A stretch of DNA of 64,000 bases from a virus. The stretch is from IMG/VR virus record IMGVR_UViG_3300031962_000002, positions 11,541 to 75,540 of that record; one strand, written 5' to 3'. Below the pieces are notes generated by a model, which did not search any database, was not told where the DNA came from, and was given only the letters and a program-made list of their open reading frames with translations. Shown piece by piece: positions 11,034 to 61,891 of the stretch. Numbering within the stretch: position 1 is the first letter of the stretch; every line of letters starts with the position of its first letter. The position numbers and the translations under genes are program-made.

Positions 11034-11563
11034 CATAAAGCCTTACATTTCTCTATCGCCTCTCGCGCTGACTCTTCGTGGTTTGGTTGATAGCCCATCC
11101 GATCGGACATCTGAAATAAGTCTTCGTGCGGCATGATCACCGTGTTCCATGGCTGATTGAGATGTGTGAAAATCCTGTCGGCCTCCCGGAGCAAGTTCTG
11201 ATCAACTCCGTATTTATCTATGTACTTGTCGAATACTTTCAGCATTCCTTTGTGGAAATAACAGCCCCAGCCGACCAGCGTACAACCCATGTCTTCGTAC
11301 TTCTTCTGAAATTCCTTGGTCATTGTATTGGTCAATCGGCCATCGTATTTTGAAAAAAGAACCTGGTAGTTCACGAAGCAATCATCGTCACACACAAAAA
11401 TAATGTCATTCTTTGCTTTCGCTGCGCACAAATAGCGATGATAAACAGACGGACACTTGGTATAAATTAAAATTTCATCGAAAAAATCTTGATCAAGTCT
11501 GTCAAGAATTATTTCAGGAAAATTATCTTCGCGAGTTATTAAAATGCAACTTATCTTTTCCAT
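11033..11563 (-). CDS. GT-A fold glycosyltransferase-like protein
   Basis: KISCILIT beta strand, AKNDIIFVCDDD DxD motif and LVGWG. Confidence 0.65.
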   Translation of the reverse strand: MEKISCILITREDNFPEIILDRLDQDFFDEILIYTKCPSVYHRYLCAAKAKNDIIFVCDDDCFVNYQVLFSKYDGRLTNTMTKEFQKKYEDMGCTLVGWGCYFHKGMLKVFDKYIDKYGVDQNLLREADRIFTHLNQPWNTVIMPHEDLFQMSDRMGYQPNHEESAREAIEKCKAL

Positions 11564-57252: not shown

Positions 57253-57285
57253 GGTTTATTTGGTTAGGTTAAATTACAAAAAATT

Positions 57286-58349: not shown

Positions 58350-58899
58350 TGATTTGGAGAGTGTGGGTGTATCATATTTTCATATTTGGGTATTTTTTGT
58401 GTGATTATTTACGTTTTTGGGTATTTTTTGGTTGGATGGATGTGTTTTGTGGTGTGTTGTTGTGGAAATGAAGAGAATGCGGGGTTTTGTGTTTTGAGTT
58501 TGTTGATGGGGTCTTTTTTTTTGTTCTTCGCCTGTTGTCCGTCTTGGCCTCTTCTCTCCGTCCTTCGGGGGCTTACGCCTACCATCTTCTGGGCGGCGTG
58601 GTGGTCCGTGGATTTGGTGTGGAATGGGGAGAGAATTTTGGCGATATCGGTAAACGAGGGTTTTGGGGTGATATGCGAATTGAGCGAAATAAAGGGGGTG
58701 AATTTTGGAATGGAGTGTACGATAGTCGGTAAAGTTGGCAACCGTTGCAAGGAAAATGGGTTAGTGGCGTGTTTTTAGTTAAAGTGTGTAATTAGTGGTG
58801 TTTTAGTTGTTTTGATGGTGAGTATTATAGATATATTAAATAGTTCTTGTGTGTTATGCACATTATATAGATATTGGTGCAAGAATTAACCAAAATTAT

Positions 58900-59085
58900 A
58901 TGAAAACTTTAAAAGAGATCAGCAAATTATCACCTAGTAGTTATACTATTTGTGATAACCAAGTTAACAAAGGCAATTTAAAATCGTGGTCTGATCGGAT
59001 TGAAATATATGTTCATTCTGATAGGAAAGCTAAAATCGTTAGTAGACTCGCGGCATATAAACATGGATTGGCCGAAAGGCCGTAA
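58900..59085 (+). CDS. Hypothetical early protein
   Basis: Start MKTLKEIS, preceded by TTAACCAAAATTAT. Confidence 0.6.
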   Translation: MKTLKEISKLSPSSYTICDNQVNKGNLKSWSDRIEIYVHSDRKAKIVSRLAAYKHGLAERP

Positions 59086-59094
59086 ATTCCACAA

Positions 59095-59148
59095 GGTTAA
59101 CTGACGAGAGGTTAATCCTCGAAACGGCCACAACTGGCCGTATTAACC
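59095..59148 (+). ncRNA. Hammerhead ribozyme (type I) HH1
   Basis: GGUUAA-CUGACGA-GAGG(UUAAU)CCUC-GAAA-CGGCCA(CAAC)UGGCCG-UA^-UUAACC. All core nucleotides and three perfect stems are present; predicted cleavage after 59142. Confidence 0.93.
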
Positions 59149-59161
59149 AAAAAAAAACTTT

Positions 59162-59326
59162 ATGAAGATGAAAACACAAGACGATTTAGGGCTTACATTG
59201 GATGCAGTCGCAGTCTACCTATATGGTCGCCCTTATTCAGAATTGGGTGAGTTTGAGCAAAATGCCGTAGAACTTGAATTGGAAGACCGTTTACGAACAA
59301 CCACCCAAAGCCATGACAACGGTTAG
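59162..59326 (+). CDS. Hypothetical protein, 54 aa
   Basis: Translated by hand (MKMKTQDDLGLTLDAVAVYLYGRPYSELGEFEQNAVELELEDRLRTTTQSHDNG). Begins 19 nt after the HH1 cut. Confidence 0.6.
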   Translation: MKMKTQDDLGLTLDAVAVYLYGRPYSELGEFEQNAVELELEDRLRTTTQSHDNG

Positions 59327-59404
59327 CCAGTTCACATCCCAAGATGTGGTGGCAAGGTCACAGTCTCCAATCCAAGAGTTTATCAAAATTAACCAACAAA
59401 CAAT

Positions 59405-59785
59405 ATGAAAACCATCTATTTAAGAAACGAGAAATTTGAGGGGACAAAATTCGAGTATGATAATTTGTCTGACATCTCATTGACTGATCGTAAAATAACG
59501 GTCGGCAATGGGGCAACGGTCGGCGATGGGGCAAGGGTCGGGCAAGCAAATGCTATTTTTGCTTTAAATCTGTACAAGTACGCATCCTCCGGTTATTTCA
59601 CGAAAGAGGGTGTACAAATGATACAACTCGGTTGCTATCTTCGCATGCGCACTGAATGGGAAAACGACTTTTGGAACAATACAAATGAATTCCCAAATGA
59701 TGGTAGTTCCTCATCTGAAGCCAGAATGCGTGCCTTCAAAACCATTTGTTTCTTTTTGGATAATGTTAAACCTGAAGAGAAATGA
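59405..59785 (+). CDS. Hypothetical protein with short hexapeptide (LbH) repeats
   Basis: ITVGNGATVGDGARVG; IQLGC...EWENDFWNN. Confidence 0.7.
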   Translation: MKTIYLRNEKFEGTKFEYDNLSDISLTDRKITVGNGATVGDGARVGQANAIFALNLYKYASSGYFTKEGVQMIQLGCYLRMRTEWENDFWNNTNEFPNDGSSSSEARMRAFKTICFFLDNVKPEEK

Positions 59786-60114
59786 AAGCAACAATCAAAT
59801 TCGATCTAGGAATCTATTCCTTCCACAGACTCATCCACGGCCCAGTCTGCGCGGATGACAGCAAAGTAAAAGAAAGTTCAATCCTGGGCGTCCTGCACCC
59901 CCTCACGACCGTGGATCCGGCCAACATATACTGCTATGCGGTTGACAGGTCATCCGGCGAGGTGCGCCAATTGGTCCGTAAGAATTTGCGGTTTAAGAAG
60001 GTCCTCACATTATCATGTGATGTGGAGCATGGGCGCGAGGTAGAATTACACGCAAAATTGAATGCTGCTTATCAGTTTTTGATGGATGAAACCAAACAGT
60101 TACAATTAGCATGA
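59782..60114 (+). CDS. Hypothetical protein
   Basis: ATGA-coupled ORF. Confidence 0.65.
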   Translation: MKATIKFDLGIYSFHRLIHGPVCADDSKVKESSILGVLHPLTTVDPANIYCYAVDRSSGEVRQLVRKNLRFKKVLTLSCDVEHGREVELHAKLNAAYQFLMDETKQLQLA

Positions 60115-60377
60115 AAACTACATTGGCAATACAAATTACAGCTATTGAAAAGGCGCGTGAATTGATTAAGACAATCGCCTCAAGCGTTCTTGAGCCATCA
60201 GCGAAGAAAGAACTTGATTATTATCTTGGATTGGATGAAGCCTTGAAAGATGCTGGTTCAACTCTTGCCTCATTGCATTTGGGAGGAAGTGTTCCGTTGG
60301 ATGCGGAAATGGTTGAAAGCATTGAAAGAATTTTTGGTAAGGCAAACGAACGAACAAAGTTAACTGAAGATCGCTGA
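60111..60377 (+). CDS. Hypothetical protein; its 3' end overlaps hammerhead HH2
   Basis: ATGA-coupled ORF whose TGA stop lies in the HH2 stem II loop. Confidence 0.65.
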   Translation: MKTTLAIQITAIEKARELIKTIASSVLEPSAKKELDYYLGLDEALKDAGSTLASLHLGGSVPLDAEMVESIERIFGKANERTKLTEDR

Positions 60378-60411
60378 ATGCGTGAAACCGGACTGCACAT
60401 CCGGTATTAAC
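60359..60411 (+). ncRNA. Hammerhead ribozyme (type I) HH2
   Basis: GUUAA-CUGAAGA-UCGC(UGAAU)GCGU-GAAA-CCGGA(CUGCACA)UCCGG-UA^-UUAAC. The core is intact with a U-U at 10.1/11.1; predicted cleavage after 60406. Confidence 0.85.
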
Positions 60412-60427
60412 CAAAATAACAAATTAT

Positions 60428-61066
60428 ATGCCTTACATGTCCTCTGAACGAACTGCCGAGATACGCAAAGCGATTAAAGCAGAATTTCCAGACTACAAGT
60501 TCTCAATCATCAATGAACACCATTCCGGAATCAGAATTGCCATCCTCTCCGGCCCACTTCAATTATTAAGCCCTGACCATTTGGAACGGGGTCGCGAACA
60601 AGTCAATGAGTACTACATCCGTGAGCACTTTGCCGAACGGCCAGAGACAAGCAAGATATTGCTGCGAATCAAGGAAATTGCCAACGAAGGTAATGGTACA
60701 GAAAGCACGGATGGAGATTACGGCAATATCCCACATTTCTATCTCACCATTGAAATAGGCAAGTGGGATGAGGCCTACAAAGTCATTGAACGGGGACGAT
60801 TAACCCCACGCATCGAAGGAGTTCCTCCCACTGGAGATAAAATAGCCACCTGCAAACTCAACCAAGCTAAAGGAGGCGTCGAACTTTATTTCCCCGCAAA
60901 TCCAGGGCGGGCAGTGCTGGACGATTTAACAGTCAACAGATTCAGGTGGTCACGGTTTAATAAGTGTTGGTACGCCAAGGACAATTCGATAGCCCGTAAG
61001 GTAGCCGAGAAGTACGCGACCATTCCTGTAGAGGAAGAAGCGAAGATCGCTATACCCGGATTCTAA
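60428..61066 (+). CDS. LPD29-like (large-polyvalent-protein-associated) domain protein
   Basis: IRKAIKAEFPDYKFSI, TDGDYG...FYLTIEIGKWD and C-terminal FRWSRFNKCWYAK. Confidence 0.75.
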   Translation: MPYMSSERTAEIRKAIKAEFPDYKFSIINEHHSGIRIAILSGPLQLLSPDHLERGREQVNEYYIREHFAERPETSKILLRIKEIANEGNGTESTDGDYGNIPHFYLTIEIGKWDEAYKVIERGRLTPRIEGVPPTGDKIATCKLNQAKGGVELYFPANPGRAVLDDLTVNRFRWSRFNKCWYAKDNSIARKVAEKYATIPVEEEAKIAIPGF

Positions 61067-61087
61067 AGCACATTTTTTGGTTAATTG

Positions 61088-61117
61088 GTCTGCTCAGAAA
61101 TGGGCAGGCTTTTTTTA
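61088..61117 (+). terminator. Intrinsic terminator of the early operon
   Basis: GTCTGCTCA-GAAA-TGGGCAGGC-TTTTTTT. Confidence 0.8.
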
Positions 61118-61120
61118 TGC

Positions 61121-61360
61121 CTACACCCGTTCAGGACCGTAGACTGATTGCTTAACAAGAGTTACAAAATTGAAATATATCTGATTGTCTTCAACCTTTA
61201 AATTGGTGCGCGATTCTACATCCTTTTTGGCCGATTGCAAGAGGTATTTAAAAATCTCTGGAGCGGTTAATTTTTCGGCGCCAATTATATCAAGTGACGA
61301 CTGGTGAATGTCATTAGGATGAGTGATTACTGTGAAGGAGTAAATGTAAGAAAGAACCAT
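61121..61360 (-). CDS. Hypothetical protein
   Basis: Likely start MVLSYIYSF immediately after the upstream stop. Confidence 0.5.
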   Translation of the reverse strand: MVLSYIYSFTVITHPNDIHQSSLDIIGAEKLTAPEIFKYLLQSAKKDVESRTNLKVEDNQIYFNFVTLVKQSVYGPERV

Positions 61361-61361
61361 T

Positions 61362-61760
61362 TTAAACAGCATTTGGATCATCCGGTGGCAAACCACCTCC
61401 GTAAATGTCAATTGGTTTGAATTCTTCCGGCTCGGAAGGAGCAACCACTGGTTCAGTGACCAGTGGTTGAGGTTGCAGCTCCTTCGCTGGGGGAGGGGTC
61501 AAGCGAGAACCAGGTGAATGATTTAAGTTTAAGGTTATGGGATGGCGCCCGGGTTTTAGTGGATTGGGGAATAATTCCTCAAAGGTCTGGCCAGTGTAAA
61601 GCAAAATCTTGTGGTAATCTTCAAGTGTCAGCCGGCCTTGCCTAATCCGGTAGCGCCACATCTGATAACTGATCCCCAGCCGATGCACGGCAAATTCTTG
61701 TGGCTTGATATTTAGCTGCCGTAAGGCAACCGTCAGGCGGTCTGGCTCTTTTCTTCCCAT
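61362..61760 (-). CDS. XRE/Cro-like HTH regulator
   Basis: QEFAVHRLGISYQMWRYRI...TFEELF; divergent from the next operon. Confidence 0.65.
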   Translation of the reverse strand: MGRKEPDRLTVALRQLNIKPQEFAVHRLGISYQMWRYRIRQGRLTLEDYHKILLYTGQTFEELFPNPLKPGRHPITLNLNHSPGSRLTPPPAKELQPQPLVTEPVVAPSEPEEFKPIDIYGGGLPPDDPNAV

Positions 61761-61891
61761 GTGCTTAGGCAAATATAGATATTTTAGATAAACAACACAG
61801 TTTAGTTAAAATAATTATATTGATTGTTTTGGAATTTGTTCACTTATTAACAACATTTGTGCACACGAACGCAAAATAACCAACAATCCTC

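Follow-up and report, generated by a model that had tools for sequence, protein, structure and literature searches.

Clusters of hammerhead ribozymes have been described in prophages and phages, where they flank single genes or short gene blocks. Their cleavage has been seen both in vitro and in E. coli, and the role suggested for them is to cut long phage transcripts into gene- or operon-length mRNAs; circular or spliced products were also discussed (Perreault et al. 2011, PMC3088659). In RNA viruses, translation makes use of type I hammerheads that lie a short way ahead of start codons (PMC13725137). What function DNA-encoded hammerheads have in bacteria and phages was still an open question in a 2019 review (PMC6765202). 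Here we describe two type I hammerheads, HH1 and HH2, found in a 64,000-nucleotide (nt) stretch of a virus (positions 11,541 to 75,540 of IMG/VR record IMGVR_UViG_3300031962_000002; hereafter the window). The record is that of a tailed phage, with genes for a portal protein, a large terminase and a DnaB-like helicase, and the two ribozymes lie on the same strand between co-directional genes of a single phage unit. Judging from the sequence, we consider it likely that they punctuate the mRNA of this operon, cutting it into three pieces in the infected cell.

The closest described counterparts are the clusters of Perreault et al., which likewise consist of same-orientation hammerheads in a phage polycistronic unit, with flanked genes that are not conserved. 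HH1 and HH2 differ from these in belonging to a type I subfamily that has a near-invariant stem I (GGUUAA/UUAACC), stop codons within the ribozyme and a leader of 18–24 nt without a Shine-Dalgarno (SD) sequence; in contrast to the rules of the 2011 survey, the subfamily also includes U.U and A.A variants at position 10.1/11.1. No description of these regularities (stem I, embedded stops, fixed leader) was found in the literature searched, which is not proof of absence. The type I hammerheads of RNA viruses, found in fungal and plant 5′ untranslated regions (UTRs) and intergenic UTRs, also occupy a short intergenic site and cut a few nucleotides before the next start codon, and the downstream RNA has a 5′-OH and is translated (PMC13725137). 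Those viruses are eukaryotic and use another translation system, whereas the present ribozymes are DNA-encoded in a tailed phage and known from sequence alone. The Rfam hammerhead families share the same core and three-way junction, and the topology of HH1 and HH2 is that of type I, but the Rfam models report neither motif, which leaves the subfamily uncovered in practice. Lastly, retrozymes and viroid and satellite RNAs resemble this locus in having a unit placed between two hammerheads of the same sense whose ends are compatible. The 5′-OH and 2′,3′-cyclic phosphate ends of such hammerhead-flanked units can be joined by RtcB or tRNA ligase. While those units are non-coding, highly self-complementary and repeats of one sequence, the piece between HH1 and HH2 is a 1264-nt four-gene mRNA with no repeat, no end-to-end pairing and no rod-like fold bringing its ends together. 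It shares with them the ability of the cleavage products to rebuild a ribozyme across the junction, an ability that almost every pair of family members would have.

Both motifs were recovered with a hand-written descriptor covering all three hammerhead topologies, which was run over the window and over the full 75,540-base virus record. HH1 and HH2 were the sole hammerheads found in either, and the scan found no type II or type III hammerheads in the window. Across 300 dinucleotide shuffles of the window, the descriptor returned 3 type I matches in total, one of which had comparable stem lengths (~0.01 such motifs expected per shuffled window). A search with covariance model R1 (described below), run with filters off, found no further degenerate copies in the window. 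All hammerhead core residues are present in both ribozymes (C3 U4 G5 A6 N7 G8 A9, G12 A13 A14 and the A15.1-U16.1 pair), together with a GUA cleavage triplet and an H17 residue (not G) at the cut. HH1 has a stem I of 6 base pairs (bp) (GGUUAA/UUAACC), the core segment CUGACGA, a 4-bp stem II (GAGG/CCUC) with loop UUAAU followed by GAA, and a 7-bp stem III that begins with A15.1-U16.1 and is followed by GUA and UUAACC. HH2 has a 5-bp stem I (GUUAA/UUAAC) with A.C at the sixth position, the core segment CUGAAGA, a 3-bp stem II (CGC/GCG) followed by GAA, and a 6-bp stem III followed by GUA and UUAAC; its stem II is flanked by U.U at 10.1/11.1, the position beside the core that is a G-C pair in HH1. 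The minimum free energy (MFE) structure of HH1 is the hammerhead fold, both alone (z = -3.7) and with flanks (z = -3.8), and this fold dominates its ensemble in context. R1 scored HH1 at 67 bits and HH2 at 58.7 bits, both being themselves seed sequences of that model. The motifs are real, complete and far above chance. A preliminary description of this DNA had reported two complete type I hammerheads in the same orientation, with a common stem I, stems II and III that differ but still pair, and GUA triplets; all of this is seen in the letters at the positions it gave, and the predicted cuts confirm its intervening piece of 1264 nt (59143–60406).

To place the two ribozymes in a family, we searched IMG/VR with a pattern reduced to the core plus the five inner pairs of stem I. 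The pattern matched at least 118 viral stretches; complete hammerheads were present at 78 loci among the matches listed, and 98 unique complete ribozymes were collected. An alignment of 64 sequences (A1) was used to build R1. Within A1, 98.3% of cells pair, a percentage inflated by the choice of members with a descriptor that requires pairing, whereas the diversity of compensating pair types is unbiased by this choice. Most positions of stems II and III carry 4–5 pair types, 10 of 16 pairs are changed on both sides, and the covariation score is 0.608, compared to 0.132 for shuffled alignments and at most 0.11 with slid partners. Stem I is near-invariant: 89 of the 98 unique ribozymes among the matches listed have GGUUAA/UUAACC, in phages that are otherwise unrelated, and the rare variants (GAUUAA/UUAAUC, AGUUAA/UUAACU, GAUUAG/CUAAUC) carry changes in both strands that preserve the pairing. 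The same stem I is carried by solitary family copies, for example the one hammerhead in an 89%-complete record of 71 kilobases (kb). A mismatch at 10.1/11.1 (U.U, as in HH2, or A.A) is present in 10 of the 64 members of A1, and because these keep everything else, the mismatch of HH2 is probably tolerated, its self-cleavage being predicted only. Going by what natural hammerheads do, it is a reasonable guess that the conserved loop II (U.A pattern) makes a tertiary contact with the end of stem I and the A-rich flanks.

Using R1, we recovered extra copies in other loci, with arrays reaching seven copies; in all, 17 of 66 hammerhead-bearing loci hold 2–7 copies, always on one strand. Pieces between cuts in these arrays span 189–2885 nt, so the 1264 nt between HH1 and HH2 is unremarkable. 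The ribozyme is the sole DNA similarity between the HH1/HH2 operon and ~20 hammerhead loci (75–86% over 49–83 nt), and hammerhead-bearing loci have almost no protein similarity to this operon. Matches to the pattern in cellular genomes were mostly in metagenome-assembled genomes of Bacteroidota, and the family probably belongs to phages infecting Bacteroidota. The sole sequencing run listed for the HH1/HH2 stretch is a DNA soil metagenome.

Some arrays have features of their own. Five loci, L041 (IMGVR_UViG_3300049491_000350), L101, L097, L083 and L104, hold single-strand arrays of 4–7 family hammerheads spaced from a few hundred nt to ~2.9 kb, and each hammerhead of L041 is followed by a conserved leader, AAAAGU(C/G)AGG(C/U)GCA(G/C)ACUAU. 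The descriptor also identified type III hammerheads in arrays with type I family members (L014 12616–12669, L088 3496–3549 and L110 2144–2203), and arrays of mixed topology seem to exist.

Family members are tightly placed relative to the genes on either side. In 71 of 98 ribozymes the start codon of the next open reading frame (ORF; at least 40 codons) is located 18–24 nt past the cut, with a median of 21, a spacing found at 5.3% of random same-strand positions. The leaders of the family are A-rich in composition (60% A, 25% U, 3% G), and an SD-like 4-mer occurs in just 2 of 80. For 89 of the 98 ribozymes there is an upstream ORF of at least 50 codons; its stop codon is the UAA within GGUUAA in 33 cases, coincides with the UGA in the core (CUGA) in 15 and falls in loop II or at its edge in 7. 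HH2 carries the last six codons of ORF 60111–60377, whose UGA (60375–60377) falls in loop II, while HH1 starts 9 nt past the stop of gene 1. The 3′ cleavage products of HH1 and HH2 share identical first 10 nt (UUAACCAAAA), which start both leaders, and the AUG follows 19 nt (HH1) or 21 nt (HH2) past the cut.

In the mechanism that we favor, one transcript of ~2.2 kb would begin at the AT-rich region (~58.8 kb), end at the terminator (61.09 kb) and cut itself after 59142 and 60406, yielding an RNA for gene 1, the 1264-nt four-gene RNA and an RNA for the LPD29-like gene that includes the terminator. As a consequence of type I topology, the whole ribozyme, lying 3′ of the stop codon or containing it, would stay with the upstream piece, giving it a new 3′ end of two hairpins and a 2′,3′-cyclic phosphate. 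The downstream piece would retain only six ribozyme nucleotides and would begin with a 5′-OH and a short, unstructured, A-rich leader, 19–21 nt before the AUG, of the kind expected for initiation without an SD sequence; the Bacteroidota matches fit such leaders. The three pieces could then differ in stability and translation. The motifs, their family, the covariation, the stop and start geometry and the layout of the operon are seen directly; from them we infer cleavage in vivo and the single transcript, as well as these consequences for stability and translation. As its fallback, the preliminary description had proposed programmed, RNA-only processing of the operon, and this fits all of the evidence.

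The unit in which the ribozymes are embedded consists, in order, of an AT-rich region, gene 1, HH1, four genes, HH2, the LPD29-like gene and a terminator-like hairpin (Table 1). The last two junctions of the four-gene block are overlaps (ATGA). No Pfam or PHROG families were identified for these four genes, and ORF 59405–59785 has 12 viral homologues. In the MFE fold, the TAA stop of gene 1 lies directly beside a GNRA-loop hairpin (UGGCC GAAA GGCCG, 59069–59082). The GGCCG of the hairpin's 3′ arm recurs in the 3′ strand of HH1 stem III, and the hairpin could conceivably pair with stem III instead. Beyond the terminator (61087), ~800 nt before the next plus-strand gene (61892) contain no obvious gene; 61121–61772 has only minus-strand ORFs with TTG starts, and a second AT-rich, promoter-like region lies at ~61780–61870.

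Table 1 Features of the HH1/HH2 operon, in window coordinates
Feature	Position	Strand	Details and basis
Putative promoter region, AT-rich, GC about 0.28	58800-58886	+	Composition profile; promoter role suggested
Gene 1, 61 amino acids, no family	58900-59085	+	ORF list; no Pfam or PHROG match
HH1, complete type I hammerhead	59095-59148	+	Predicted cut 59142/59143, after A59142
A-rich leader after HH1 cut, 19 nt, without SD	59143-59161	+	Sequence; family spacing statistics
Four tightly packed genes	59162-59326, 59405-59785, 59782-60114, 60111-60377	+	ORF list
HH2, type I hammerhead, U.U at 10.1/11.1	60359-60411	+	Predicted cut 60406/60407, after A60406
A-rich leader after HH2 cut, 21 nt	60407-60427	+	Sequence; family spacing statistics
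Gene 6, 212 amino acids, N-terminal LPD29 domain	60428-61066	+	Pfam PF18847 E = 5e-7; phrog_10415
Intrinsic-terminator-like hairpin, 10-bp stem then T run	61087-61120	+	Closes unit

The motif TAACCAA, which has the letters of the stem I 3′ strand and the start of the leader, had been claimed to precede ribozyme-free genes as well, and it does so at 58887, 59390 and 61877 on the plus strand and at 57266, 54880 and 36268 on the minus strand, in each case 8–16 nt upstream of the start codon. The motif is modestly enriched (13 of 52 sites outside hammerheads). Support for TAACCA as a general translation leader is likewise only modest: it ranked 2 of 60 permutations in the genome and 1 of 60 in hammerhead loci, but other TAA-containing permutations scored alike.

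Several observations weigh against operon punctuation by HH1 and HH2. The MFE structure of HH2 holds stems II and III, while its weak, A/U-rich stem I is absent, and with U.U beside the core and a weak stem I this ribozyme may be slow or conditional; mispairs at 10.1/11.1 were excluded by the rules of the 2011 survey (PMC3088659). The Rfam scan proposed in the preliminary description was negative: hammerhead models of Rfam release 15 (RF00163, type I; RF00008, type III; RF02276, type II) reported neither HH1 nor HH2 at gathering score over the whole window or at E ≤ 10 over 2.5 kb, and HH1 was also missed on 76 nt. We read this silence as a shortcoming of the models that does not count against the motifs. 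The preliminary description had also suggested a check of related phages for paired hammerheads, and those that were compared have none. A blastn search of 57–62 kb against the phage collection gave no match, and no hammerhead was present within 3 kb on either side of distant homologues (29–52% identity) of ORFs 59405–59785 and 60428–61066, nor in two of the full records. Relatives of the portal protein at 70–78% identity are short fragments, and two portal-protein relatives searched whole with R1 (about 21 kb each) gave no match. Because the compared phages are without hammerheads, the function of the hammerheads is dispensable or replaceable. Lastly, the near-invariant sequence of stem I is unexplained by stop-codon use alone, as the UAA within GGUUAA explains no more than roughly one case in three (33 of 89 with an upstream ORF) and HH1 uses neither this stop nor that of the core.

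The conservation of stem I leaves room for readings in which the cut ends are rejoined. The preliminary description had predicted a circular polycistronic mRNA carrying 4–5 early ORFs, of which four genes (59162–60377) are found there. In this reading, after double cleavage, the 5′-OH end of the middle piece (UUAACC) would pair with the GUUAA of HH2, and the hammerhead reverse reaction or host RtcB would close an exonuclease-resistant circle. Such a circle is chemically possible, since the 5′ end of the middle piece would be a perfect substrate for the HH2 reverse reaction. The 3′ products being identical over 10 nt, the junction would rebuild HH2 exactly, and type I topology keeps the entire catalytic core with the 2′,3′-cyclic phosphate end. 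Across the family, 32 of 35 adjacent pairs have stem I strands that are fully cross-compatible, but this compatibility is automatic because stem I hardly varies; HH1 and HH2 themselves form 5 bp of stem I in cross, the same as in cis, and in two arrays the downstream ribozyme has its own 6 bp but one bp fewer with the product of its neighbour. As the identical stem I is family-wide (89 of 98) and extends to solitary copies, it gives no evidence of selection for end-joining, and the match is not readable as an adaptation of the HH1/HH2 pair. What had been described as an interchangeable stem I is thus a trait of the family and not of this pair. Furthermore, stem I is just 5–6 bp and A/U-rich, for which quick product release is expected, and it is not re-formed in the MFE structure of the 1264-nt fragment. 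End-to-end pairing of this piece was rejected, the duplex (-28.3 kcal/mol) being no better than in shuffles (mean -30.7 kcal/mol) and thus showing no extra complementarity. RtcB is present in a Bacteroides control genome but was not found in the phage, while a search for T4 RNA ligase gave no match in any control genome and is uninformative on the phage. Perreault et al. considered circles possible for phage clusters, but sought circular and spliced products and detected none (PMC3088659). Linear punctuation alone explains the stop and start geometry, the circle on a specially matched stem I finds no specific support, and we regard it as unlikely. A broader version holds that the near-invariant stem I is kept for re-ligation, by hammerhead or RtcB, leading to circular polycistronic mRNAs or letting phage operons skip and re-join cistrons at the RNA level. 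With a near-invariant stem I, any ribozyme-bearing 3′ end in an infected cell could pair with any 5′-OH UUAACC end. If true, this would mean that bacterial mRNAs can be subject to a programmed cut-and-rejoin system; we consider it improbable.

Cleavage might instead be gated or coupled to translation, the ribozymes acting as switches and not as constitutive cutters: a ribosome that terminates within the ribozyme or beside it, or an alternative helix, would decide whether the ribozyme folds and so link expression of the downstream gene to translation of the upstream one. Most family members do contain the upstream stop, which in HH2 falls in loop II, although compaction would account for embedded stop codons just as well. 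A perfect 8-bp helix (60337–60344/60429–60436; GUAAGGCA / UGCCUUAC; -12.9 kcal/mol) might form around HH2 and mask the AUG at 60428 until its strands come apart, but it is one outlier, the strongest among 97 members, and may be due to chance. Flank pairing averages -4.82 kcal/mol in the family compared to -4.94 kcal/mol with permuted partners, showing no family-wide signal, and distal extension of stem I and sequestration of the start codon were both rejected as family traits on the same comparison. For HH1, the GGCCG hairpin abutting the gene 1 stop matches letters of the stem III 3′ strand, but the hammerhead fold dominates the ensemble in context. Overall, we give such a switch a low probability. 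It is also conceivable that the ribozyme is a selfish or boundary element, a portable intergenic 55-nt cassette with multi-frame stops and a leader that spreads between phages and serves mainly as a recombination joint between gene cassettes, with cleavage incidental or lost. In line with this, the ribozyme alone is shared in DNA with the ~20 loci of otherwise unrelated context, the genes neighbouring family hammerheads are not conserved, and the loci of distant homologues of the operon genes have no hammerheads. However, the intact core in all members and the many compensating substitutions in stems II and III point to selection on an RNA fold and not on a DNA joint, and the tight start-codon spacing points to selection on a function at the RNA level, which makes this explanation very improbable.

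Operon punctuation thus remains the reading that we favor for HH1 and HH2. The layout of clustered phage hammerheads has been known since 2011, and this locus is an ordinary example of it. What stands out is the unusually regular design of the subfamily, with a stop codon inside the ribozyme, an A-rich leader of ~21 nt without an SD sequence, an invariant stem I and arrays of up to seven copies. Surveys based on Rfam probably undercount this large subfamily of phage hammerheads, and the regular design and the invisibility to Rfam are the most useful points to carry forward. With >100 natural variants available, the idea of operon punctuation is directly testable in cultivable Bacteroidota phages that carry this subfamily.

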